A model generated the notes under the pieces. The model was not told the origin of the DNA, did not search any database, and saw nothing but the letters and a program-made list of their open reading frames with translations. A stretch of DNA of 64,000 bases, taken from the NCBI RefSeq assembly GCF_018977255.1, contig NW_024704743.1, forward strand, positions 21,578,001 through 21,642,000. The letters are read 5' to 3'. The position numbers and the translations under genes are program-made. Below, piece after piece: positions 29,160 to 64,000 of the stretch (position 1 is the stretch's first letter; every line of letters begins with the position of its first letter). Origin of the DNA: Callorhinchus milii. Its lineage: Eukaryota.

Positions 29160-29445
29160 AAATACATTGTAAAGTGAATTGACTGTATATTTTGTGGGAG
29201 AATCGCGGCAGACAATTGATTACAACAGTGTCCCACAAACACTCGTGGATAGAAGTGACCAATTTATTATTTTTTTAAGGAATTATTACCCACGGAAAAA
29301 GCGATCTGCCAATTGAACAAGAGCCAGGTTCCTATTTACTACTAGGTAAACAGAGTGTGTGGAGTAAGAAAACTTGCCCGACATTTTGCCCTGCTGGGAA
29401 TCAAACCCAGGTCTCTCTCTTGCGAGGCAAGTGCTCTAACCACTT
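29160..29445 (-). mobile_element. tRNA-headed SINE, long subfamily, downstream of the ENKUR stop
   Basis: Head, internal segment and Deu core present; tail truncated. Confidence 0.82.
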
Positions 29446-29859
29446 ATGTTACTCTATAAATCCAAAGAAAAATTGCTGGCAAACATTTCCTCATTAATAC
29501 AGGACAGAATTTAACATTTGTGTACAGTACATATCATTTTGAACAATTCTATGAATTTTGTTGTTGAATCAAATACTGTAAGTATACACGGACTGATGTT
29601 TCTAAAGTAAGTTGCAGGAAATAATATTGTAGAATAATGCGTTCTAAATTGTAAACTGTAACTTTGCTACCAATTGTCATTTAATTCCTCAACGTTTTGC
29701 ACTCTTATTCATATATTCGCGAAGTATGATTACTATTGATCTGTTTTACATGAGCAACTGCTACTGTGATCTATAGTACTTGGAGACTTAAAATCCTAAT
29801 GCAATTATGCTTTATGTCTTCCAAAACAGAGGAAATTTAGGAGGCGAGTTCATAAATCT

Positions 29860-39439: not shown

Positions 39440-40190
39440 TTAACAGGTAGATGAGGTGGTGAGGAGAACGATGACTGAAAGCATGGTCAGAGAGGTAGAT
39501 CTTGAGATAAACCTTGAAATGATGTGAGGGAAGGACCGAGTCAGATGGACTCCAGGATGAAGCTCCAAAGAGTGGGAGCAGACAGACTGCCGACAGGGTG
39601 GCGGGATATGAAGCAGACTGCTACCTTTTGAGCGTAGGGAATGGATGGGTTGGAAGGGAGGGTTTGAGGAGGTTGCAGAGCTGGATGGAGCAACACCATG
39701 AAGCAATTTAAAGGTGAGGAAGAGGATCTTGAACTTGATCTGCTGAGGAGCCAATGGAACGGGGCGAGAATGGGGGCGACAGTCTTGTGGAGCCTAGGGA
39801 AAGGACATGGGCTGCAGAGCTCTGGATAGTTTGCAGTCTGTGCCGGCAAGAGTTAGGCAGAACAGTAAGCAGAACATTAGCGACAACGACGGATGGCGTT
39901 TGTTTAAGCGCCTTTTTCACGCCAGGAGGACGTCCCAAGGCGCTGGACAGTCGGGGACTCGCACCTGAGCAGGTGGGGGGGGGGGGGAGGGAGGGCGGGC
40001 AGGGGAGTGGTAGGGAGGGTGACCGATGGCGAGGTTGAAGAGGAGGGTCTTGAGATGGGTCTTGAAGGAGGGAGGGAGGGAGTGGTGGGGGGGTGCGAGG
40101 CGGAGGGGACCGCGGGACGGAGTTCCAGAGGGTGGGGACAGAGGCTGAATGGCCCGAACAGCTTCCAGCAGCACAGCACTGAGCTCTCAT
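39440..40190 (-). mobile_element. Two tandem L2 3' fragments; the promoter-proximal one is GC-shifted
   Basis: IKFKILFLTFKLLHG and FKTHLKTLLF motifs; tail at ~39880. Confidence 0.8.
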
Positions 40191-40267
40191 CAGGGACTTT
40201 CTCCGGGGGCCCCCAGTGTCCATGATGATTAAAGCCTCCCGACCCCTGTCGCTGTCACTGGGGAGGT

Positions 40268-40478
40268 CCCCGGGCTCTGGGCTGGTCCCCCCCCCCCCCC
40301 CCCGGGCTCTGGGCTGCCCCCCCTCCCCCGGGCTCTGGGCTGGTCCCCCGGGCTCTGGGCTGGTCCCCCCCCCCTCCCCCGGGCTCTGGGCTGGTCCCCC
40401 CCCCCTCCCCGGGCTCTGGTCCCCCCCCCCCGGGCTCTGCCCCCCCCGGGCTCTGGTCCCCCCCCCGGCTCTGGGCTC
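40268..40478. repeat. GC-rich minisatellite, ~9 units of CCCGGGCTCTGG(GCTGG)TC(C)n, at the start of ENKUR intron 1
   Basis: Units counted directly; the last unit runs into the exon-1 donor. Confidence 0.9.
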
Positions 40479-40559: not shown

Positions 40560-40700
40560 CGCTCGGGGCCGCGGACCGACACAGACACAGCCCCGGGGCC
40601 GGGATCTGGACAACCACCCGCGGCGTTGCCACGGTCACCGATCAACACGCGCGTTACTACGGACGTCACTTCCGCTGTCTGTCATTCGCGCTCATTGTTT
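40560..40700 (-). promoter_or_regulatory. ENKUR CpG-rich promoter/5'UTR with RFX X-box-like site and overlapping ETS-CRE motif
   Basis: CpG dense; GTTGCCACGGTCAC at 40625-40638; GCGGAAGTGACGTCC on the minus strand at 40675-40661; directly upstream of the ATG. Confidence 0.75.
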
Positions 40701-40724: not shown

Positions 40725-41790
40725 AGGGAGAGAGGGGGAGAGAGGGAGTGTGAGAGAGGGGGAGAGAGGGGGGGGAGAGGGGGGAGGGAGAGAGGGAGTG
40801 TGAGAGAGGAGAGGGAGAGAGGGGGGGAGAGAGAGAGAGAGAGGGGGGAGGGAGAGACAGAGTGTGAGAGAGAGGGAGAGGGAGAGACAGAGTGTGAGAG
40901 AGAGGGAGAGAGGGGGGAGGGAGAGAGGGAGTGTGAGAGAGAGAGGGGGAGGAGAGAGGGAGAGAGGGGGGAGGGAGAGAGGGAGTGTGAGAGAGGGAGA
41001 GAGGGAGAGAGAGAGAGGGGAGGGAGGGAGAGAGAGGGGGAGAGAGAGACAGAGTGTGAGAGAGAGGGAGAGAGGGGGGAGGAGAGAGGAGAGAGGGGGA
41101 GGGAGAGAGGGAGTGTGAGAGAGAGGGAGAGAGGGGGGAGGGAGAGAGGGAGTGTGAGAGAGAGAGGGGGGAGGGAGAGAGGGAGAGAGGGGGGAGGGAG
41201 AGAGGGAGTGTGAGAGAGGGAGAGAGGGAGAGAGAGAGAGGGGGAGGGAGGGAGAGAGAGGGGGGAGGGAGAGACAGAGTGTGAGAGAGAGGGAGAGAGG
41301 GGGGAGGGAGAGGGGAGAGAGGGGGAGGGAGAGAGGGAGTGTGAGAGAGAGGGAGAGAGGGGGAGGGAGAGAGGGAGTGTGAGAGAGAGAGAGGGGAGGG
41401 AGGGAGAGAGAGAGAGGGAGGAGGGAGAGAGAGAGGGGGGAGGGAGAGACAGTGTGAGAGAGACAGAGAGAGAGATAGAGTGAGAGAGACAGAGAGAGAG
41501 AGACAGAGAGAGAGAGACAGTGTGAGAGAGAGGGAGAGAGAGAGTGTGTGTGTGAGAGGTAGAGAAAGTGAGAGAGACACTGATGGAGTGAGTGTGAGAG
41601 AGACGCGGGGGAGAGATATGGGGAGCGAGAGAAAGAGAGAGAGACATGAGGAGAGAGAAAAGGGAAGTGAGACAGAGAGAGGAGGGGAGTGAGACAGACA
41701 GATGGGGGGCGGGGGGGGGGTAGAGAGAGACATGGGGAGTGAGAGAGAGAGAGAGAGATAGGGTGTGAGTGAGAGCACTTGGGAGTCAGA
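40725..41790. repeat. ~1.05 kb polypurine (GA/GGGA) compound micro/minisatellite
   Basis: Recurrent GAGGGAGAGAGGGAGTGTGAGAGA units; almost all purine on the + strand; a smaller GA-rich block follows at ~42385-42565. Confidence 0.95.
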
Positions 41791-41799
41791 GACAGAGAG

Positions 41800-42345
41800 G
41801 CTTTTTTGGTCAGGTGGGGGTGTCCGATACACAGCCAAGCTGAGAGCTCGGTGCATCCCACCTGTACACGGAAATTCCAGAGGTGGTCACTGGGACTGAA
41901 CCCTTGTTGGAGGGTCGCATCCCGCTTACCTAGTTCTGGAAAGTATTAGGCGCCGCAAGTTGGCCCGAGCCAATGCGCTCCCCAGAGTGTGCGTCGGGGT
42001 ACTGCTGGAGTCGAACTATCTAAAAACCGCATAACTCTCCACATAACTGAGAGCACTGTCTGTCTGGCAAGCTTTCCCTCGGCTCGTCTCGCTAGGACCG
42101 CCCGACCTGTTGGGGCTTTGGCTTGCAGGGTTAACGGGAGCCGAATGGGAAGAGTCCCAGTTACTGGTCTGCCCGTCCGGGTCCTGCCAATGTGCCAGGC
42201 TGGCTGTGCTGTCATCAGCAGTGCCCTGGAATATTGCGGACCCTCCTGGCTCGGGAACTGGAGTACTGAGACCCCCATAGAGTTAGCTCAATTCTGACAT
42301 TCCGTTGCAAAGCATGTCACCTTGGTTCCAGTTTGGCTCCAAAGA
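41800..42345 (-). mobile_element. Longest copy of an unidentified A-tailed interspersed repeat (SINE-like)
   Basis: Homologous by eye to 27395-27805(+), 48430-49000(+), 6845-7050(-), 53520-53695(+), 18592-18667(-), 48335-48395(-) and 55160-55238(-). Confidence 0.75.
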
Positions 42346-44338: not shown

Positions 44339-45450
44339 GTGGAGTCCTGCAGCTCAGTGGTTAGAGCACTCACCTTGCAAGCAAGACACCTGGGTTCAAT
44401 TCCAGGCAGGGCGAAACCTTGGGCAAGTTTCCTTACTCCACACGCCTAATAATAATCCCTCCAAAAACAAAACAATAATAACTTGGTCATTTTCGATCCA
44501 CGACTGTTTGTGGGACATTGCTGTGCGCAATTGTGCTGCCGCGTTTCGCCCACAAATATACAGTAAATTCACTTTACAGTCTATTCTGTGAAGCGCTTTG
44601 AGATGTCTAGAAGACATGAAAAGCGCTATATCAAAATGCAAGGATTATTATTTTATTATTATAAGAGAGAATTTGATAGCACTATACTTGTTTGAGCCTT
44701 GTAACCTGTAATAATTGTAAAGAGCATATAATAATAATCCTTGCATATAAAATTGCACCTTACAGTAAAGTGGTATGACTGTGTGTATTTTATGGATGAA
44801 ACACACCAGTTAGTTTTGCACACAGCAATATTCTACATATAGATTTTTTTTTATTTGGGGGATTGTTGGCCAGGATACGGGATAAATTGGAGTCCTTTAG
44901 CTCAGTGGTTAGAGCACTCGCTTTGCAAGTGAGATTAGTGGAGTCCTTTAGCTCAGTGGTTAGAGCACTCGCTTTGCAAGTGAGAGACCTGGGTTTGATT
45001 CCTGGCAGGGTGAAATCTTGAGCGAGTTTCCTTACTCCACACGCTTGATAATAATCCCTCAAAAAAAATAATAATAAATTGGTCATTTCAATTCAAGACT
45101 GTTTGTGGGACACTGCTGTGCATAATTGGCTGCCGCATTTCACCCACAGGTATACAGTCAATTCACTTTACAGTCTATTTTGTGAAGCACTTTAAGACGT
45201 GTAGAAGATGTGAAAGTGCTATATCAAATGCAAGGATTATTATTATTATAAATTCTTTATTTGAATAGCACCATGGGATCTTTAGAGCCCACCTGAACAG
45301 GCAGATAGGAGCTCAAACAATGCAACACACCCACAGCAATGAGTGGAGTGAGCTTAGATGATATGGGTTCTAAGACCTAACCTGGGGCTAGAACCCACAA
45401 CCTTCTGATTCAGATGGGAGACAGAGCTCTTAACAGGACCAGGCTGACAC
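44339..45450. mobile_element. Young SINE (44339-44662,+), then an old DeuSINE (-) interrupted by a double-headed SINE (44889-45250,+)
   Basis: Tandem duplicated tRNA head; ATAAATT target duplication around the insert. Confidence 0.85.
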
Positions 45451-46727
45451 ACAGTGCGATGAGAGTTCCACATCTGCCAGCAAACGTACAATTACAGCAC
45501 TGATTTCCAACTCAGTATCCTATATTCCTTCAGCTTTGAAGACAATCTGAGAATATAACAGCACCATAGAACCACAACAAAAACAACAAAATTACATTTG
45601 TATAGTGCCTTTCACATTGGGATGACATCCCAAGATGCTGGACACACCGAGTTTCTGACCCAAGCTGGGGGTCTGGGTGGGGGAGTGTGGAGGGCAGGGG
45701 GGAAGCAGGGAGATCGAAAGCATGGTCGAAGAGGAGGGTCTTAAGATGGGTCTTGAAGGAGACAAGGGAGGGGGCGAGACGGAGGGACTGTGGGTTGTAG
45801 TTCCAGAGGGTGAGGGCAGAGTGGCAGAAGGCCTGCCCACCAACGGTGGGGCGGGCGAGGCGGGGGACGTGAAGCAGACCGGAGCCTGCTGAGTGGAGGG
45901 AGTGGGCAGGTTGATAGGGGTAAATAAATTGGAAAAGCCAATTTCAGTTGATTTCTAAAAAGTGAAGGTGAAACTTGAATTTCACCTCAAGTATCAATGC
46001 TATTTCCAAACTAAACTCCACGGTGGAGAAGTAAATAAAAAGTTTGTGTAAACCTCCTTGAATCCTGTCTGGAAAAACATCAAATAATCATCTACTTCAG
46101 TTCAGAAGCATGTACCTTTTTCTAATCACTGAAGGATCATGGATTGAAGAGACTAATCTTTATGTGAGATGCAGGGCTAAAAACAACAATCTTTTTGTTG
46201 CTTATTTATCATGGGATTTAATGATCAGTGACTGATAGACCAATCTTGCCCTTAGTCCTAAACTCAGACTGATAACTCAGGATTTTATACATAATGTGCG
46301 TAACTCTGAATCGATCAGTCAGGGTGGGAGGGGAAGACAGTCATAATAAATGCTGAAAGTGCAGGATTAGGGAGGCGAATATTATAGTGTATTATCTTTC
46401 TTTCACGCAGTTGGAAATGTGATTAAAGACCTGTTGACAAAGTGGCAGAGTTTCTGGTGTAAAGATGTGGGTGGAGATATTACATGAATTGTAGACAAAT
46501 CTTTTTAGGAGTATCATTTTTCTGCTAGACTGATTGCTTCCAAGTAGCTTTCTTCTTAAGTCGCTTCTTTTAAAGAGTGGGCACAGTTAAACATGAGAGG
46601 ATGCTCAATAAGATGGGAAAAGCATATTGATTTGATATATTTGGCGTCAGTTTGAAAACATTCTCTCCCTGGTTGGGGGAAGGGAATTTTGGGAGGTGGA
46701 GGAGGAATTTATTGGTCTCATATCCTA

Positions 46728-46760
<33 letters not shown>

Positions 46761-47068
46761 CCTTGCATTTGATATAGCGCTTTTCACGTCGGGAGGACGT
46801 CCCAAAGCGCTTCACAGAATATACTGTAAAGTGAATTGACTGTATATTTGTGGGCGAACGCGGCAGCCAATTGCGCACAGCAATGTCCCACAAACAGTCG
46901 TAGATTGAAAACGACCAATTTAATTATTGTTTTTGTTTTTTTGGAGGGATTATTATTAGGCGTGTGGAGTAAGGAAACTTGCCCAAGGTTTCGCCCTCTG
47001 CCTGGAATTGAACTCAGGTCTCTCACTTGCAAAGCGAGTGCTCTAACCACTGAGCTACAGGACTCCAC
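46728..47068 (-). mobile_element. Young full-length tRNA-headed SINE, short subfamily
   Basis: Near-identical to the 3694 and 21372 copies; long perfect (ATT)n tail. Confidence 0.92.
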
Positions 47069-51389: not shown

Positions 51390-53212
51390 CTTCTTGCGGG
51401 TCTGGACTGCTCAACCTCCCCAGGCTCTCCCTCACACTCATCGAACCCCCACGCAGCTTAGGAGTCAGATTCGATCCCCAGCTTTCCTTTCTACCCCACA
51501 ACCGCTCTGTGACCAAGACCATTTTTTTTTCTCCTCTGCCACATTGCCTGCCTCCATCCATATCTCACAACTAATGCAGCCACACCTTTGTCACTTCCTA
51601 GCTGGACTACTCCAATGCCCTCCTTACAGGTCTCCCCAGCTCCACCATACACAAAATACAGTTAATTCAAGACTCCGCTCCCTGGATATTCATCTGCACA
51701 AAACTCTGTGCCCCCATCACACCAGTCCTTGCCAGGCTCCACTTGCTCCCAATTACCAAAAAAATAATTTCAAGATCCTCTCACTTGTTTTTCCACTTCA
51801 CTTCTTCTTCACAAACCTTCACTTCATCTCCACAAATGGCTTCTCCTCTAGCACCCGCACCATCTTGTGTGGCATTCCTCAGGGCTCTGTCCTTGGTCCC
51901 CTCCTCTTCAATATCTATATGCTCCCTCTTAGTGACATCATCCGCAGACATGGGGCCAACTTCCATATGTATGCGGATGACACCCAACTCTACCTCTCTG
52001 CCTCTACCCTTGACTCCAGGTGCAATGCTGTCCTGGCAAAATGTCTGTCAGACATCAAGTCCTGGATGAGAACTAATTTTCTTCAGTTGAACGTCAACAA
52101 GACCGAGGCTCTCCTGATTGGTTCCCGTCAGTGCCTCCTCTCTTCAGGTGCTGACGGTATCTCCATCCATGGTTGCACACTCCACCTTACTAAGTCGGTC
52201 TGGAAGCTTGGGGTCTTGTTTGACCCCCAATTATCCTTTCTACCCCACATCTGCACCATGACCTACCCTGCTTTCCCCCACCTCCGCAACATCGCTCAGC
52301 TCTGCCCCTGTCTCACATCACAGGCTGCTGAAACTCTCATATATACTTTGATTACATCGAAGCTTGACTATGCAAACTCATTGCTTGTTGGCCAACCCAA
52401 CTCGTTTCTCCATAGGCTGCAGATCATCCAGAACTCTGTAGCCCACGTCCTCTTCCGCACCAGGCTCCGTAACCCTATCACTCCCATCTTCGCCCGACTC
52501 CACTGGCTTCCAATCACACAGAGGATACAGTTCAAGATCCTGGTCCTCACTTTCAAAGTCTCCATGGTCTTGCTCCCCCCTACCTTTGCGACCTCCTAAC
52601 CCCCTACCATCCTGCTCACTCCCTCCGCTCAGCAGTCTCCGACCGGCTTCACGTCCCTGCCTCGCTCGCCCCACTATTGGCGGGTGAGCCTTCTGCCACT
52701 GTGCCTCCACCCTCTGAAACTCCATCCCGCAGTCCCTCCACCTCGCCCCCTCCCTTGCTTCCATCAAAACCCATCTCAAGACCCTCCTCTTCGACCATGC
52801 TTTCGATCTCCCTGGTTCCCCCCCTGCCTCCACACTCCCCGACACCGATCCCAAGCTCGGGCCTGAAGCTCTCCGTCCAGCACCTTGGGATGTTCTCCCA
52901 ACGTGAAATGCGCTGTACAAATGTAATTTTGTTGTTGTTTTCAAATCGCTTCATGCCCTTGCACCTCCCCTCCGCTCCACCAACGGAAGCCGTACCTTTA
53001 GCTCTATGCCCAGACACTGTGGAACGTTCTCCCTGAATCTCTCCACCCAACCCCTCCCTCCCAACTTTCAAATCCCACCTAAAGACCTTCCTTTTTGATC
53101 GTGCTTATTGTCACCTCCCCGCTCCCTCTCCCCCTGCTCGTTGTCAGCCACTATCAAGTGTTCCGCGACTCTCCCCCTCATGAAGGGTGCTATATAAATG
53201 CAAGTTGCTGTT
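51390..53212 (+). mobile_element. 5'-truncated L2 (RT C-terminus plus 3'UTR, ~51792-52941) nested inside an older L2 3' fragment
   Basis: [16 protein letters not shown] and MYADDTQLY; (TTG)n tail; the older copy resumes at 52942; TTGTTTT on both sides of the insert. Confidence 0.9.
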
Positions 53213-55239: not shown

Positions 55240-56345
55240 CGGGGTGTGTGGGGGTGTGGTGGTGGGGTGGGGGGGCTGTGTGGTGGTGGGGGGTGTGGTG
55301 GTGGTGTGGGGGGGCTGTGTGGTGGTGGGGGGTGTGGTGGTGGGGGTGGGGGGTGTGGTGGTGGGGGTGGGGAGTGTGTGGTGGTGGGGGCGTGTGGTGG
55401 TGGGTGTGGTTGTGGTGGTGGGGGCGTGTGTGTGGGGGGTGTGTGTGGGGTGTGTGGTGGTGGGGGCGTGTGTGTGGGGGGGGTGTGTGGGGGGGGGTGT
55501 GGTGGTTGGGGTGTGTGTGGTTGGGGTGGGGAGTGTGTGGTGGTGGGGGCGTGTGGGGGTGGGGGTGTGGTGGTGGGTGTGGTTGTGTTGGTGGGGGTGT
55601 GTGGGGGGGGGTGTTGGTGGTGTGTGAGGGGGGGGTGTGGGTGGTGGTTGTTGGTGGTGTGTGAGGGGGGTGTGTGGGGGTGTTGGTGGTGTGTGAGGGG
55701 GGGTGTGGGGGGGGGTGTTGGTGGTGTGTGTGAGGGGTGTGTGTGGGGGGTGTTGGTGGTGTGTGTGGGGGGGGGTTGTTGGTGGTGTGTGAGGGGGGTG
55801 TGTGGGGGGTGTTGGTGGTGTGTGAGGGGGGTGTGTGGGGGGTGTTGGTGGGGGGGGGGTGTGGGGGGTGTTGGTGGTGTGTGAGGGGGGTGTGTGGGGG
55901 GTGTTGGTGGTGTGTGTGTGGGGGGGGTGTTGGTGGTGTGTGAGGGGGGGTGTGGGGGGGGGGTGTTGGTGGTGTGTGTGAGGGGTGTGTGTGGGGGGTG
56001 TTGGTGGTGTGTGAGGGGGTGGTGTGGGGGGGGGTGTTGGTGGTGTGTGAGGGGGGGTGTGGGGGGTGTTGGTGGTGTGTGTGAGGGGTGTGTGTGTGGG
56101 GGGGTGTTGGTGGTGTGTGAGGGGTGTGTGTGGGGGGGGGTGGTTGGGGTGTTGTTGTTGTGTGTGGGGGTGTGTGTGTGGGGGGGTGTTGGTGGTGTGT
56201 GAGGGGGTGTGTGGGGGGGGGGTGGTGGTTGGGGTGTTGTTGTTGTGTGTGGGGGTGTGTGTGTGTGGGGGGGGTGTGGGGGGGGTGGTGCTTGGGGTGT
56301 GAGGGTGGTGTGTGGGGGGTGTTGGTGGTGTGTGGGTGGGAGGTG
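55240..56345. repeat. ~1.1 kb G/T-rich compound minisatellite
   Basis: Recurrent GTTGGTGGTGTGTGAGGGGG(G)TGTGTGGGGG units; almost no C. Confidence 0.95.
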
Positions 56346-57200
56346 TGCATCAGCCGCTGTCACTCCCTGGTGACCGCAGGTCCCGCCCCCACCCCGAGGG
56401 GGCGCTGCCATCAACATAGCACAGAAACAGTGCAGTGCGCAGGCGCGAGTGGCTACGGGAGCCGTGGGGGGGGGGGGGGGAGGGAGGAGGAGCGGCGCGT
56501 GCGACCGGGAGCTGACCGGGGGGGGCGGGGCGGGAGGTGGCGGTTGGCGGTTGGTGACGCGCTGCGCTCCGAGTCGGACGGTTGTGCGGGTTTTCCAGCG
56601 CCACCTCAGGCGCTCACAGCGTCTCCGGTGCAGACCCGGGGGTGGGGGGGGGGGTCAGCGGCCAATGGAGGCATTCAACCAAGGTCCTCCCCACCTCCCC
56701 TCCCCCCCCCTCCCCCCGGGGTGGGGAATGGGTGTGTGTGTGTGTGTGTGGACACGGTGGAGTCCTGTAGCTCAGTGGCCGGAGCGCTCGCCTCGCGAGG
56801 GGCGCGAGAGAGGGAGAGGGAGAGCCTGGGGTTTGATTCCCGGCAGCGGGAAAACATTGTCCGAGTTTCCTCGCTCCACGCCCGCGCCTCACGCCCGCGC
56901 CTCCCTCCCTCCGTCGACCCGGCGGTGAGTAGGAAGGAACCCGGCGCAGAGTCGATCGCCGCATGGCTTTTCCGGGGTAATATCTCCTCCCGGGGTGGGG
57001 GTGGGGGGTGGGGGTGGGGTGGGGGGGCTTCAACCCCCCCCCCCCCCCCCCCCCCGACGAGTGTCTTGTGGGACGCGGCTGAGCCCACACCGGCTGCGGG
57101 GTTTCGCCCACAAGGTGTCCGCTGTGCATATTCCGTGAAGCGCTTTGAGACGTCCCGAAGGACGTGGTAAAGCTCTGTATCAAATGCAAGGATTATTATC
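56345..57200 (+). promoter_or_regulatory. CpG island, probable THNSL1 promoter and first non-coding exon region
   Basis: High CpG; GC box CCCGCCCCC at ~56382-56390; CTCF-like CCCCGAGGGGGCGCT at 56392-56406; NRF1-like TGCGCAGGCGCG at ~56436-56447; about 2 kb upstream of the coding-exon acceptor. Confidence 0.7.
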
Positions 57201-57360
57201 ATTATTATTATTATTATTATTAACGATCCCATGGCACAATGCAAAAAAGAAACGGGAGTTTCTCCCAACGTCCTGGCCAGTACTCCCACCCACAGGTAAT
57301 ATTTACCTTTCATTTCCGTTGGTGAAACATTGCTGTGTGCAAAACCGACGGCTGCAATCG
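56536..57360 (+). mobile_element. GC-shifted old DeuSINE (56536-~56690 and 57225-57360) with nested GC-shifted tRNA-headed SINE (56757-57222)
   Basis: GTGGAGTCCTGTAGCTCAGTGG head and (ATT)n tail are recognisable; flanks match the old SINE head (CTCCGAGTCGGACGGTTGTG vs CTCTGAGTCAGAAGGTTGTG) and body (GATCCCATGGCAC...GGGAGTTTCTCC). Confidence 0.82.
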
Positions 57361-57429
57361 CCTGCAAACGTCTGCAGCTGCAGACAAAGGTTTTCAAAGT
57401 TAAAAACCGAATTAGCTTTGTGCTCTTAT

Positions 57430-57755
57430 CCTTCTACGCCGCCTCCTCTCGCCCCAACCTTCACGGCTCTGCCCTTGGCTGGTTCAGATCGTACCTCTCA
57501 CACCGTCTCCACTTCATCTCCGCGAACGGCTTCTCCTCGACTCCCCGCTCCGTCTCGTGCGGCGTTCCTCTGTCCTCGGTCGCCTCCGCTTCAATATCTA
57601 TAGGCTCTCTCTTGGCGACATCATCCGCAGACATGGGGTCAATTTCCACATGTTTGCGGATGACACCCAACTCTATCTGTGCCTCCACCCTTGACTCCAG
57701 GACCACTGGTGGGCTGACAGGCAGTCCTGGGTGAGAGCTAATTTTCTTCAGCTAA
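57430..57755 (+). mobile_element. L2 RT fragment, CpG-rich
   Basis: HGSALGWFRSYL..ANGFSS; homologous to ~51820-52085. Confidence 0.82.
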
Positions 57756-58081
57756 CTGAGCTCAAATGGAATTTGTGCTCTTTTGGAACAAATTGTGCAC
57801 ACATGGAATTTGAAGCTGTAACCTTTTGATCTGAGTGCTTCAGTATTTCTAGCTTTACATACTCGTTCAAGGGTCTGTCTCCAACTTGTCGATCAGCTCC
57901 AGGTGTCGTGTCAATGAAGACAAGAGGAAGGAGCGATATTTACTGTAATTTAAACAATAAGGTTTATCTATTATTTTCGAGATGCGTGGAATACTTTGTG
58001 CATCCGGCTTCGCGGAGGAAATGTTTGGAGTAAATAACAAGTTCTGTAGCTCCGGTCTCTTGTTTCTTGATCGTGTGCGAG

Positions 58082-58100
58082 ATCGCCACCTAGTGGCGAT
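58082..58100. promoter_or_regulatory. CTCF-like motif within a perfect palindrome
   Basis: ATCGCCAC-CTA-GTGGCGAT; the minus strand reads CCACTAGGTGGCGA. Confidence 0.6.
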
Positions 58101-58259
58101 GGACCGGTTGGGGACCCCCTGCACTTGTTGATCAGGGAAAGATGGATCACATTTCTTTTAAAAGAGTATTGCAAATATTGCACAGAATGGAATGAACCAG
58201 ATGAGAGATTTGATGGAATTCAGGCTCCTTTTGTTTCCGTCCAAACCTCTGTAGCAAAC

Positions 58260-59030
58260 TCTCACCTGTGAGTTAGAAGGCTGTGGGGTCAATCCCCATG
58301 TCGGGACTTAATAATAATAATCCTTGCATTTGATATAGCGCCTTATCATGTCTTCGAGATGTCTCAAACGGCTTCACAGAATATGCTGTAAAGTGAATTG
58401 ACTGTATATTTTGTGGGTGAATCGCGGCAGTCAATGGTGCAACGCAGTGCCCCACGAACAGTCGTGGATTGAAGTGATCAATTTATTATTTATTTTTTGA
58501 AGGAATTATTACCTCTGGAGAAAGGACCTGCCAATCCACTGACAATCGGATTCCTACTTACTGCTAGGAAAACAGAGGCGTGTGGAGTAAGGAAACTTGC
58601 CCAACATTTCGTCCTGCCGGGGATCGAACCCAGGTCTCTCGCTTGCAAGTGAGTGCTCTAACCACTGAGCTGCATGACTTAGAACCCATAGAGTCTTTGC
58701 TGACACATCAATGCAGTACACTGCATTGTTGGACATGTGGTCCTACAGATAAACTGAGGTCTTATTTGCCTATCCAAGTGGATGTTAAAGATCCCATGCA
58801 CTTTTCAAATAGAGAAGGGAGTTTATCCTAATGTTCTGGCCAACAGTCCCCTACTCCCCACAAAAATTTTAAAAAAGTAATTCACTCCATGTTTTTGGGA
58901 CATTGCTGAGTGCAAATTGGCTGCCATATTCGTTGACAAAATGCACACAGTCACATCACTTTACAGTGTATCCTGTGAAGTGCTTTGAGATGTTTTGACG
59001 ATACAAGACGCTGATCAATTGCATGGATGA
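58260..59030. mobile_element. Old DeuSINE (+) interrupted by a long-subfamily SINE (-, 58310-58675)
   Basis: The old element continues on both sides; possible GACTTA target duplication. Confidence 0.8.
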
Positions 59031-59215
59031 TAAAGGTGTGTGTTTTCATTTGATGAAAAGTGCAAATTGATAGAACTTATTTTATCTTATTTTCTATGGG
59101 GTAGAATAGATTAAGACTGTCTGAATCGTTGTTGTTATTTTAAACAGCCTTATTCTTCATTTTCTTTCAGTTCATGGCATTTGTCAGCGTCTGACTGCTT
59201 TTTTCAAGAAAGGTC

Positions 59216-61468
59216 ATGATGTCCAGGTCCATTTATGCAGGCGTGAGTCTCCTGGCAATGAAGTTTTTTTATAGATGTATGTCCAAAAAATGTTTGAGTC
59301 CCTGCAACAGGAACTCAGGCTTGCCATTTCTAAAAATATTGTTGATCTCTAGGCGCACAAAACCTCTGTCCACATACAGCTCGCTGGTTGGTGAAAAGAA
59401 CATTGTACTTATGGGTGCTCCTGGTGCAGGGAAGACAACAGTGGGGAGATTTGTTGGTCAGATCACGGGTCTTCCTGTAATAGATGTCGATGATGATGTC
59501 CTTGAAAAGACTTGGCTCATGTCTGTAGCAAAGAAACTTCAAGAGGTTGGCGGTGATCTGTTTCTGGAAGAGGAGGGAAAGGCCCTTCAGAGGTTTTCAA
59601 CATCTGGAAGTGTTCTTAGTCTCACTGGGTCCAATCCCATGCATCGTGCTAGTATGCAGCACATGAAAAGCAATGGAATAGTTGTCTACCTTGACGTGCC
59701 TCTTGAAGACATATTAGAAAGACTCGAACGAATGAAGGTGGATCGCATTGTTGGTCAAGAACCTGGTGTTTCAATGAAAGAGATTCTTCAGTACAGGCGA
59801 CCGTTTTACCACCAGTGGTACGATGTCCGTGTCCTGTGCGAATCTGGTGAATCAGCAGAAGCAATTGCCGTGAAAGTCCTTGAAGCTGTGAAGAGATATC
59901 AAGACATTACACCTGAAACATTTATTTCTACAAGAAGTACAACTGAAGACTCAGAGGCAAGAAAAGACCCCGTTTTCTTTAGTGATGTGGTTGTTGAAGG
60001 CCTGGCTTCAGATGGAGGACTCTACGTGCCTGCAACGAAGCTTCCAAAGCTGACTCCTGGCGAGTGGCAACGGTTGGTTGACGTACCTTACATTGAACGG
60101 GCACAGGTCTTGCTGGAGTTGTGCATCCACCCCAGTGATGTACCTGCTATCAAGTTGCAAGAGATGTTGGCCAGAGCTTACGGACAGAACTTTTCCTGTA
60201 CAGAGGTAGCACCAGTTAGGCATTTAACTGGTAACCAGTTTCTTCTGGAGTTGTTTCATGGGCCCACAGCTTCTTTCAAGGACTTGGCTTTACAGCTGCT
60301 GCCACAATTGTTTGCATTCTGTATCCCACGAACTTGTAATTATCTGATACTAGTAGCTACATCTGGCGATACAGGCAGTGCTGTTCTGGATGGTTTCAGT
60401 CGCCTCAGTGACACTGACAAAGAGAGAATCTCAGTGCTCACATTCTTCCCCGAAGAGGGAATTAGCCAAATTCAAAAGGCACAGATGATTAGCTACCAAG
60501 ATAAAAATGTAGGAGTTATAGGTGTCCAGTCTCATTTTGATTTTTGCCAGTCAGCTTTAAAACAGATATTCTCAAATCCCGACTACACTGGTTTCCTGAC
60601 AGTTGAATATGGGACAGCCCTGAGTGCAGCTAACTCTATAAACTGGGCCCGACTATTGCCGCAGTTGGTCTATCATGCCTCTGCCTACCTTGATCTTATC
60701 AGCCAAGGAATAATTACATTTGGAGACCCAGTAGATGTTTGCATCCCTACAGGAAATTTTGGAAATGTGCTGGCAGCTGTGTATGCCAAACATATGGGGA
60801 TTCCAATCAGAAAATTTATTTGTGCTTCAAATCAAAATAACATTCTAACAGATTTTATAAGGACGGGTAATTATGATTTGAGGCACAGAAGCGTAAGTGT
60901 TTCTTTGTCACCAGCTATAGATATTCTCAAATCCTCCAACCTTGAACGCTACTTGTATCTTATCACACATGGTGACGGGCGGCTGATGAGGGAGTTGTTC
61001 TCCCAGCTGGAAGAACAACACTATTTTCAGGTGGCGAGGCCACTGCTGACGAGAATTCAGGATGACTTTGTGGCAGACTGGTGCTCGGAGGAAGAGTGTC
61101 TCGCTGCTATCTATTCTGTATACAAGTCCTGCGGTTACATTCTAGACACGCACACGGCCGTTGCAAAAGTGGTAGCAGATCGCCAGGATGACAGGTCCTG
61201 CCCAGTTATCATCTCATCAACCGCTCATCCTTCCAAATTCGCAGCCGCTGTGATGCAGGCTTTGAAGGTTGAAGATGTGAAACAAAGCCCAGTTGATCAG
61301 ATCCAGCTCTTGAAGTGTCTCGACTGTTTGCCTCATGTGCACACGGCTTTATTGCAAAGACTTCAACAGGCCCACGTGCAAAAGGGGGAGATCTGTCCAG
61401 CAGATGTTGATGCTGTTATGGATCATGTAGAAAGCTTTATTCAACACAATTTCATCAACGTTCTTTAA
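59216..61468 (+). CDS. THNSL1: Threonine synthase-like 1: basic N-terminal presequence-like region, shikimate-kinase-like P-loop domain, PLP-dependent threonine-synthase domain
   Basis: Uninterrupted 750-aa ORF; GAPGAGKT at 59414-59437; FHGPTASFKD with the PLP lysine (K355, 60278-60280); ATSGDTG, NSINWAR and PTGNFGN motifs; splice acceptor TTTCTTTCAG| at 59170; head-to-head with ENKUR as in other vertebrates. Exact start Met uncertain. Confidence 0.96.
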   Translation: MMSRSIYAGVSLLAMKFFYRCMSKKCLSPCNRNSGLPFLKILLISRRTKPLSTYSSLVGEKNIVLMGAPGAGKTTVGRFVGQITGLPVIDVDDDVLEKTWLMSVAKKLQEVGGDLFLEEEGKALQRFSTSGSVLSLTGSNPMHRASMQHMKSNGIVVYLDVPLEDILERLERMKVDRIVGQEPGVSMKEILQYRRPFYHQWYDVRVLCESGESAEAIAVKVLEAVKRYQDITPETFISTRSTTEDSEARKDPVFFSDVVVEGLASDGGLYVPATKLPKLTPGEWQRLVDVPYIERAQVLLELCIHPSDVPAIKLQEMLARAYGQNFSCTEVAPVRHLTGNQFLLELFHGPTASFKDLALQLLPQLFAFCIPRTCNYLILVATSGDTGSAVLDGFSRLSDTDKERISVLTFFPEEGISQIQKAQMISYQDKNVGVIGVQSHFDFCQSALKQIFSNPDYTGFLTVEYGTALSAANSINWARLLPQLVYHASAYLDLISQGIITFGDPVDVCIPTGNFGNVLAAVYAKHMGIPIRKFICASNQNNILTDFIRTGNYDLRHRSVSVSLSPAIDILKSSNLERYLYLITHGDGRLMRELFSQLEEQHYFQVARPLLTRIQDDFVADWCSEEECLAAIYSVYKSCGYILDTHTAVAKVVADRQDDRSCPVIISSTAHPSKFAAAVMQALKVEDVKQSPVDQIQLLKCLDCLPHVHTALLQRLQQAHVQKGEICPADVDAVMDHVESFIQHNFINVL

Positions 61469-62984: not shown

Positions 62985-64000
62985 TGAGCTCCATTATATC
63001 AGAGAACTGGTGGAGGCTGTTCGAGTGCAGATGGCGGAAAACTGGCCTGACAGTTCACCGCCAACTGGCTCGAGCATCTCCACAGCTACCGTCGTTCTTT
63101 GGAGCGCGAGAAAACGGTCTTCTACTCCAACATCATCTTGGAGGTTAAAAACAATCCTAAGATCCTTTTTTCCACCACCCACTACCTCCTCTGTGCCTCC
63201 CCTCAGGCCTTCTCAATTTTCACATCCAATGCCAAGTGCGAGGAAGTCATGGACTTCTTTTCATCCAAAATACACAACATCCGCCAAGCAGCCTCATCCT
63301 CCTGCCTCTTGTCACCCACCACCACCCCCTCTCCGTCCCCCTCACTCTCCCCATCATCTGCTCCTACCACCACCCCCATCCTACACCCCTTCCTCCCCAT
63401 CTCTCCCTCCCTCTCACCCACCATCATCTCAATGAAACCCACCACCTGCTGCCTCGATCCCCTCCCCACCAACTTGCTGGTCACCAGCTCCCCCTCCTCT
63501 GCCCACTACTGGCTGATGTCATTAACCAGTCCCTCTCCTCTGGATCAGTCCCTGCCCCCCTCAAAACTGCTGTCATCACCCCCCTCCTCAAAAATCCTTC
63601 CCTAGATCCCTCAAACCCCAGTCACTACCGCTCTATTTCAAACTTGCCCTTCCTCGCTGAAATCCAAGAACGCGTTGTTGCCAATCAACTCCACGAACAC
63701 CTCTCCACTCTCTCTTCGAACCCCTCCAGTCCAGTTTCTGCCCTGCCCACAGTACAGAGACTGCGCTTGTGAAAGTCACAAATGGCATCTTTATCTGTGA
63801 CCAGGGCTCCCTCTGCCTCCTTATCCTCCTGGACCTCTCCGCCACGTTCGACACAGTCGATCACACCATCCTCCACCTCCTTTCCTCCGTCATCCACCTC
63901 AGTGGGACCGCACTCGCCTGGTTTGAGAACCTACCTCACTAACCGCCAGCAGTACATCTGCACAAACGGCTTCTCCTCCCGCTCTCACCTGGTTACCTGC
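62985..64000 (+). mobile_element. Degenerate L2 ORF2, continuing past the window end
   Basis: KPTTCCLDPLPT, KTAVITPLLKNPSLDP, YRSISNLPFL, LDLSATFDTVDH. Confidence 0.9.

Follow-up and report, generated by a model that had tools for sequence, protein, structure and literature searches.

Directional A/T-to-G/C rewriting of nested SINEs within a CpG island at the ENKUR/THNSL1 locus of the elephant shark Callorhinchus milii

In a CpG island at the ENKUR/THNSL1 locus of Callorhinchus milii, a tRNA-derived SINE that is inserted into an older host SINE has been rewritten, predominantly by changes from A or T (weak, W) to G or C (strong, S). The window that we analyzed comprises 64,000 nt of DNA, and all coordinates are positions within it. 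The nesting of the two elements, the direction and the rates of the changes, and the local confinement of the bias are apparent from the alignments. Judged from these sequence data, we think it probable that biased gene conversion, together with break-repair mutagenesis at an unmethylated, long-lived meiotic hotspot, has rewritten the nested SINEs. This kind of process has been well documented in dogs and other vertebrates; what is new is the lineage. The locus shows AT-rich repeat sequence that was made into CpG-island DNA after its insertion: the island SINE contains 41 CpGs, compared with 6-15 in its long sisters and nine in their consensus, and CpGs that are absent from the consensus repeat arose after the element had inserted.

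The island SINE (56757-57222, plus strand), delimited by alignment with long sisters, possesses a 70-bp internal segment and has four of five diagnostic columns in the long state. By these traits it is assigned to the long subfamily, and the sisters named in the initial annotation of this DNA to the short one. We used the five long copies present in the window as comparators and polarized the substitutions against their consensus, leaving out the indel zones 56797-56825, 56877-56908, 56990-57056, and 57116-57128. Polarization by repeat consensus sequences is an old method. The first 22 nt at 56757 are, as had been reported, identical to those of the copy at 47068. Within the next 21 nt, seven sites differ from the 47068 copy and all of them are W-to-S, again as reported, but two (56792 and 56794) correspond to the C state of the long subfamily and only five are derived. 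The W-to-S changes described for an internal motif are real (seven at 56909-56933); the motif is, however, absent from the three sisters that had been named for comparison, and the quoted sequence occurs in four long copies (four matches, none expected). The AT-rich linker, which was said to have been replaced by G and C runs, has indeed been lost to a (GGGGTG)n stretch (56992-57027) and a C run (57034-57055), but these are expansions of the slippage type and not point substitutions. ARAGORN scored the heads of five sisters as tRNA-Ala but not the head of the island SINE, which supports the A/T state as the ancestral one.

Relative to the consensus of the five long sisters, and with the indel zones excluded, the island SINE carries W-to-S changes at 30 of 143 sites and S-to-W changes at two of 133; at 26 of these 30 W-to-S sites, none of the sisters has G or C. 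When TpG/CpA and CpG contexts were set aside, W-to-S changes were 3.9-fold more frequent than in the sisters (20/108 vs 33/703, p = 3e-6), and S-to-W changes were reduced to 0.20 of the sister rate (2/117 vs 57/653, p = 0.007). The claim that directional rewriting goes beyond simple CpG protection is supported by this excess (W-to-S:S-to-W of 20:2 vs 33:57, p = 5e-6; the tests were post hoc and concern one locus and a five-copy consensus). It thus persists when ancestral CpG sites are excluded in this manner, but only 7:2 vs 26:36 (p = 0.07) is left under the strictest mask, which discards gap-adjacent sites and every site that has a CpG in at least one sequence. GC* amounts to 0.92 for the island SINE and to 0.35 for the sisters, a logit difference of 3.0 (bootstrap 1.8-4.7). 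The sister rates are somewhat lowered since each sister contributes to the consensus; leave-one-out pooling gives 42:68 and a GC* of 0.33. A conversion coefficient (B) of 3 predicts a 3.2-fold increase of W-to-S and a reduction of S-to-W to 0.16, so that one parameter fits both directions. A count of 61:4 obtained with MAFFT was discarded because this alignment forces the G/C runs onto the AT linker.

Exchanges between W letters were not raised (4/124 vs 12/795, p = 0.25), so greater age of the element alone does not fit the data. Exchanges between S letters, in contrast, were five times as frequent as in the sisters (10/133 vs 11/738, p = 4e-4), with some of them located in loosely aligned stretches. 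As such exchanges are GC-conservative, a second, mutational process is needed. T-to-C and A-to-G changes were balanced, with 13 of each. The 30 W-to-S changes are strongly associated with CpG: 19 lie in a CpG, while 8.8 are expected if the same types of change are placed randomly (P = 1.5e-4), and five CpGs arose through a pair of changes (0.74 expected, P = 5e-4). Fifteen of the 30 have a changed neighbor (5.8 expected, P = 0.0015); clustered changes were found in none of the five sisters. A sequential model in which CpG-forming changes were weighted one- to six-fold did not reproduce the doublets. Context-blind conversion predicts neither the CpG excess nor the doublet excess nor the S-to-S excess, all three of which the initial annotation had overlooked.

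The CpG island extends from 56311 to 57220 (910 bp, GC content 0.67, 76 CpGs, observed/expected ratio 0.75) and passes thresholds of at least 200 bp, at least 55% GC, and a CpG observed/expected ratio of at least 0.65. Repeat-derived DNA accounts for 629 of the 910 bp (69%) and for 56 of the 76 CpGs, counting the G and C runs within the SINE, which bears out the assertion that most of the island consists of repeats. From left to right, the region consists of a G/T array, a non-repeat core, the 5' part of the host SINE, a (GT)n stretch, the island SINE, the 3' part of the host SINE, and a LINE fragment. The adjoining array (55241-56347, plus strand) is a G/T-rich low-complexity tandem repeat with TRF periods of 13 and 21 and G4-type motifs. 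The core (56311-56535, no strand assigned), recognized by its composition and left unmasked by self-BLAST over 56348-56756, has a GC content of 73% and contains 18 CpGs and GC boxes. Within it, a palindrome at 56437-56446, which we take to be NRF1-like, is the sole match in the window (0.04 expected), while a match at 56392-56405 is presumably CTCF-like; CTCF-like matches occur window-wide at chance level (10 vs 8.9 expected). Another CTCF-like match, with one mismatch, is located at 58083-58096 on the minus strand, where the GC-shifted zone ends on its right side; the DNA there is unique and has retained CpGs.

The 5' part of the host SINE (56536-56700, plus strand) was delimited by alignments with 8-10 sisters from the window, which are looser over 56620-56700. 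Within the island SINE, TRF detected a 13-bp side-by-side duplication (56877-56903, plus strand; 2.1 copies, 100% identity), and alignment and TRF revealed the expansions of G and C runs in place of the linker (56992-57055, plus strand). The element has grown from 371 to 439 bp, with gain of large indels. A pattern scan found a GTGAGT sequence that resembles a splice donor, the use of which is putative (56925-56930, plus strand); the long sisters read GTAAGT at this position. The host SINE continues on its 3' side at 57223-57395 (plus strand), followed by a CpG-rich LINE fragment (57401-57740, plus strand), presumably of the L2/CR1 type; both were defined by alignment. Rfam yielded no match in 56300-58300. 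A contig from run X2 carries the island sequence 56350-56654, and one from run X5 carries 56760-56954 with two differences; independent recovery in both runs makes an assembly error unlikely. Near the island, at least four unpolarized single-copy variants are present among those listed.

The head of the host SINE has been rewritten likewise, as the initial annotation had proposed, with 12 W-to-S and two S-to-W changes against 29:50 in eight sisters (p = 9e-4). The ratio is 7:2 without CpG transitions (p = 0.026) and 10:3 when every CpG is masked (p = 0.006), the alignment used for the latter including spurious columns; a count of 22:4 was discarded because of spurious columns beyond 56700. The shift is weak in the 3' part of the host SINE, at 57223-57395 (10:5; p = 0.056 for all sites and 0.046 for non-CpG sites), and in the LINE fragment an overall ratio of 17:7 falls to 8:7 without CpG sites (p = 0.41). 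Compared with the genome-wide majority, the L2 fragment shows 7:1 among the rows listed (40 of 418), but as the sister SINE at 58309-58679 gives 6:3 there, this is weak support. A self-BLAST map of the window found GC* above 0.7 in only two of 43 one-kb bins with enough sites, both in the island, and among 51 window copies of the shared SINE tail the island copy ranks first (9:0). A second long SINE (58309-58679) is likewise nested in an old SINE (58240-59031), 1 kb from the island. It is hardly GC-shifted, if at all (15:13, leave-one-out), which sets a limit to the extent of the effect. The bias is confined to about 56.3-57.7 kb.

Targeted alignment with 2-6 comparators identified two diverged fragments flanking the ENKUR island that the self-BLAST map had overlooked (GC* 0.29 there). 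One is the 3' end of a LINE (39845-40150, plus strand) with a W-to-S:S-to-W ratio of 26:11 (14:7 at non-CpG sites, p = 0.016), the other a repeat fragment on the opposite side (41790-42300, plus strand) with 41:13 (21:12 at non-CpG sites, p = 0.079). By these alignments, the bias appears to span families, namely the SINE, the host SINE, and the two unrelated fragments at the ENKUR island.

The gene setting was defined by homology. C. milii enkurin matches five minus-strand exons at 100% each in tblastn searches, and the first coding exon (40557-40480) marks a head-to-head promoter island at about 40.4-40.8 kb. Just 5' of this exon, the sequence GACGTCACTTCCG at 40660-40675 resembles, we presume, a CRE/ETS composite of the kind found in bidirectional promoters. 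The THNSL1 coding exon (59151-61468, plus strand), recognized by its Pfam SKI and Thr_synth_N domains and by homologues, is a single one with an open frame at 59195-61468 and an acceptor placed from the sequence at about 59151; the 90% cluster of THNSL1 includes two C. milii records. The rewritten island lies 16 kb from the first coding exon of ENKUR, which has its own CpG island, and 1.9-2.8 kb 5' of the THNSL1 coding exon. Its designation as a promoter in the initial annotation is thus not established: the island could be an orphan one within the 5' intron of THNSL1 or else an alternative promoter. Run X5, which we guess to be RNA, had similar depth over non-coding and coding parts and provided no usable splice joint that would place the start of THNSL1. 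If THNSL1 starts in the island, the GTGAGT at 56925-56930 would be a possible exon end. For run X15 (organism B), coverage among the pieces listed comprises the THNSL1 coding exon and one repeat only. At position 59287, in the THNSL1 N-terminus, runs X1 and X2 show an A/T difference from the window, in keeping with a K/N difference seen relative to another record from C. milii.

Substitution counts alone do not distinguish conversion from selection for GC or CpG, under which the patch would serve as an enhancer or an alternative promoter of THNSL1, and changes that create CpGs would have been favored in the adjoining SINEs. The surplus of CpG-forming changes is in line with selection, as are the NRF1-like motif, the GC boxes, and the donor-like site in the island; orphan CpG islands have moreover been linked to enhancer activity (PMC11170920). 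We nevertheless regard selection as unlikely: 11 of the 30 changes create no CpG, and W-to-S change is not significantly more frequent at TpG/CpA (10/35) than at the remaining W sites (20/108, p = 0.23). The large indels and the increase in length are unlike constraint, and unrelated fragments at the second island, that of ENKUR, carry the bias too. The clustering of adjacent changes, the five-fold S-to-S excess, the duplications, and the runs would follow from local mutation bias without conversion, in which DNA synthesis that is error-prone in the vicinity of G-rich, G4-prone, or transcribed stretches generates more W-to-S changes, C/G exchanges, and doublets, all of which lack of methylation preserves. 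The G4 motifs and the adjoining 1.1-kb G/T array fit as well, and hypermutability has been described for human start sites (PMC13712754). Elevated mutation does not, however, lower non-CpG S-to-W changes five-fold, and W-to-W exchanges are unchanged. The human start-site study itself attributes composition to mutation bias plus gBGC and needs gBGC to fit the GC content, and we hence consider a purely mutational origin quite improbable.

That the differences were passed on by a GC-rich master element, either distinct or older, rather than gained in place has been largely refuted and is very improbable. The island SINE has five minority letters in common with another copy (29161-29460), and of its 52 differences 14 recur in one or more of 11 sisters; the remaining 38, however, are private among these 11 window sisters. 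At 80% likeness, depth over 56866-57037 (with 56988-57064 skipped as repeat) was 33, 17, 4, and 2.5 in four runs and thus near single-copy in all of them; in X1, where the depth of 33 compares with 9-19 over a single-copy exon, the sister at 58414-58757 reached about 8e5. Over the stretch covered, contig depth across the genome speaks against a dispersed GC-rich subfamily, which the initial annotation had named as a finding that would refute it. The host SINE and the unrelated fragments shift likewise, and the heads of the sisters are tRNA-like. Simple CpG protection, i.e., retention in an unmethylated island of ancestral CpGs that the sisters have lost, is consistent with the absence of decay of consensus CpG letters to A/T in the island SINE (0/16, compared with 16/85 in the sisters) and may account for much of the excess in the L2 fragment. 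For the SINE it is refuted as the sole cause, a reading to which we attach hardly any probability, but it remains a contributing factor: just one of the 10 TpG/CpA changes has G or C in any sister, 20 changes lie outside TpG/CpA, and the consensus has nine CpGs where the copy has 41.

Conversion combined with break-repair mutagenesis, the reading that we prefer, would operate as follows. The lack of decay among the consensus CpG letters suggests that the island escapes methylation in the germline, and new CpGs would consequently persist there. The island would attract meiotic breaks, and conversion would fix G/C alleles; over many rounds of heteroduplex repair, fixation of W-to-S changes would rise and that of S-to-W changes would fall, with a net B of about 3. 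Error-prone repair of the breaks would supply the extra C-to-G and G-to-C changes, the doublets, the duplications, and the G and C runs, and the doublets could represent tandem mutations that were converted together. The SINE letters would thereby enlarge an island that probably started from its non-repeat core (56311-56535). The preference for CpG could come from mismatch repair in a CpG context or, alternatively, could stem from selection.

The best-studied parallel is found in dogs, where W-to-S substitution is raised four-fold in CpG islands and gBGC is thought to make new islands, mostly off genes (Berglund 2015, PMC4350167); a self-reinforcing loop has been proposed for these islands, and most dog SINEs were placed near average recombination (Auton 2013, PMC3861134). 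The elephant shark island resembles the dog islands and GC peaks in its W-to-S rate of about four times the background, its suppressed CpG decay, its location away from an annotated gene start, and the self-reinforcing growth proposed for it (PMC4350167, PMC3861134). It differs in that it belongs to a cartilaginous fish in which PRDM9 is disputed rather than lost, in being polarized by a repeat consensus rather than by outgroups, and in its AT-rich SINE substrate. The locus appears to work like a dog GC peak; membership in that class is not proven, the S-to-S exchanges being raised here. In mammals, including those that keep PRDM9, GC* peaks mark PRDM9-independent hotspots (Joseph et al., 10.1101/2023.11.17.567540). 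The narrow GC* peak at a CpG-rich locus is like the placental-mammal hotspots of that study, but their rule for masking CpG leaves 7:2 here, and ours is a single locus.

According to PMC11170920, orphan islands often overlap gBGC tracts and can be gained by gBGC or by transposon insertion. The island studied here likewise combines repeats and W-to-S substitution outside an established promoter; unlike in gain through transposon insertion, the CpGs did not arrive with the repeats. Meiotic-break hotspots of humans exhibit C-to-G and A-to-G changes, an insertion bias, and side-by-side duplications (Hinch 2023, PMC7615360), and the island SINE recalls these signatures by its surplus of C/G exchanges, its 13-bp duplication, its net lengthening, and its runs. 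The human signature was, however, defined at PRDM9 hotspots from rare variants, and we did not find an excess of WW-to-CG doublets in the part of that report available to us. SINEs of the elephant shark are normally methylated in a liver, and hence somatic, methylome (PMC5437953). As for PRDM9 itself, C. milii has been reported to possess a KRAB-SET form without SSXRD, whose zinc fingers are not fast-evolving and which was undetected in testis RNA (Baker 2017, PMC5519329), whereas another study counted it as complete (Cavassim 2022, PMC8892340). Since these published accounts conflict, the premise of the initial annotation that recombination proceeds without PRDM9 is not established. We entertain, tentatively, the possibility that an elephant shark with an SSXRD-less PRDM9 sends breaks persistently to unmethylated islands and converts the adjoining AT-rich SINEs, with a drive directed toward CpGs and doublets and not blind to context.

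In the literature that we surveyed, mostly by title, we came across no report of gBGC at CpG islands of chondrichthyans or of SINEs turned into islands, and the parts of PMC3068003 available to us did not contain polarization by repeat consensus. Where recombination takes place in cartilaginous fishes is treated as an open question in the literature surveyed. Since close outgroup genomes are scarce, repeat consensus sequences offer a practical means of polarizing substitutions in this group. With B at about 3 throughout the lifetime of a SINE, the implied hotspot is a stationary one, which is not expected of hotspots directed by PRDM9. A single locus proves little; if the interpretation is true, the abundant SINE copies would map hotspots and the growth of islands in a cartilaginous fish, with dates and without recourse to outgroups, and they would test whether a PRDM9 without SSXRD directs recombination.

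Several further features of the window deserve mention. Both of its CpG islands adjoin a G-rich tandem array of about 1 kb, GA-rich at 40728-41681 and GT-rich at 55241-56347; both arrays are G-rich on the plus strand and contain many G4-type motifs. Shorter arrays of 16-77 bp are present at 40256-40474, and a perfect 51-bp tandem duplication of the SINE tRNA head was observed at 44888-44985. Three LINE fragments, at 45701-45910, 52491-53020, and 63791-63990, meet the CpG-island thresholds. The two at 45701-45910 and 52491-53020 have no marked W-to-S excess and are therefore probably CpG-rich by descent.
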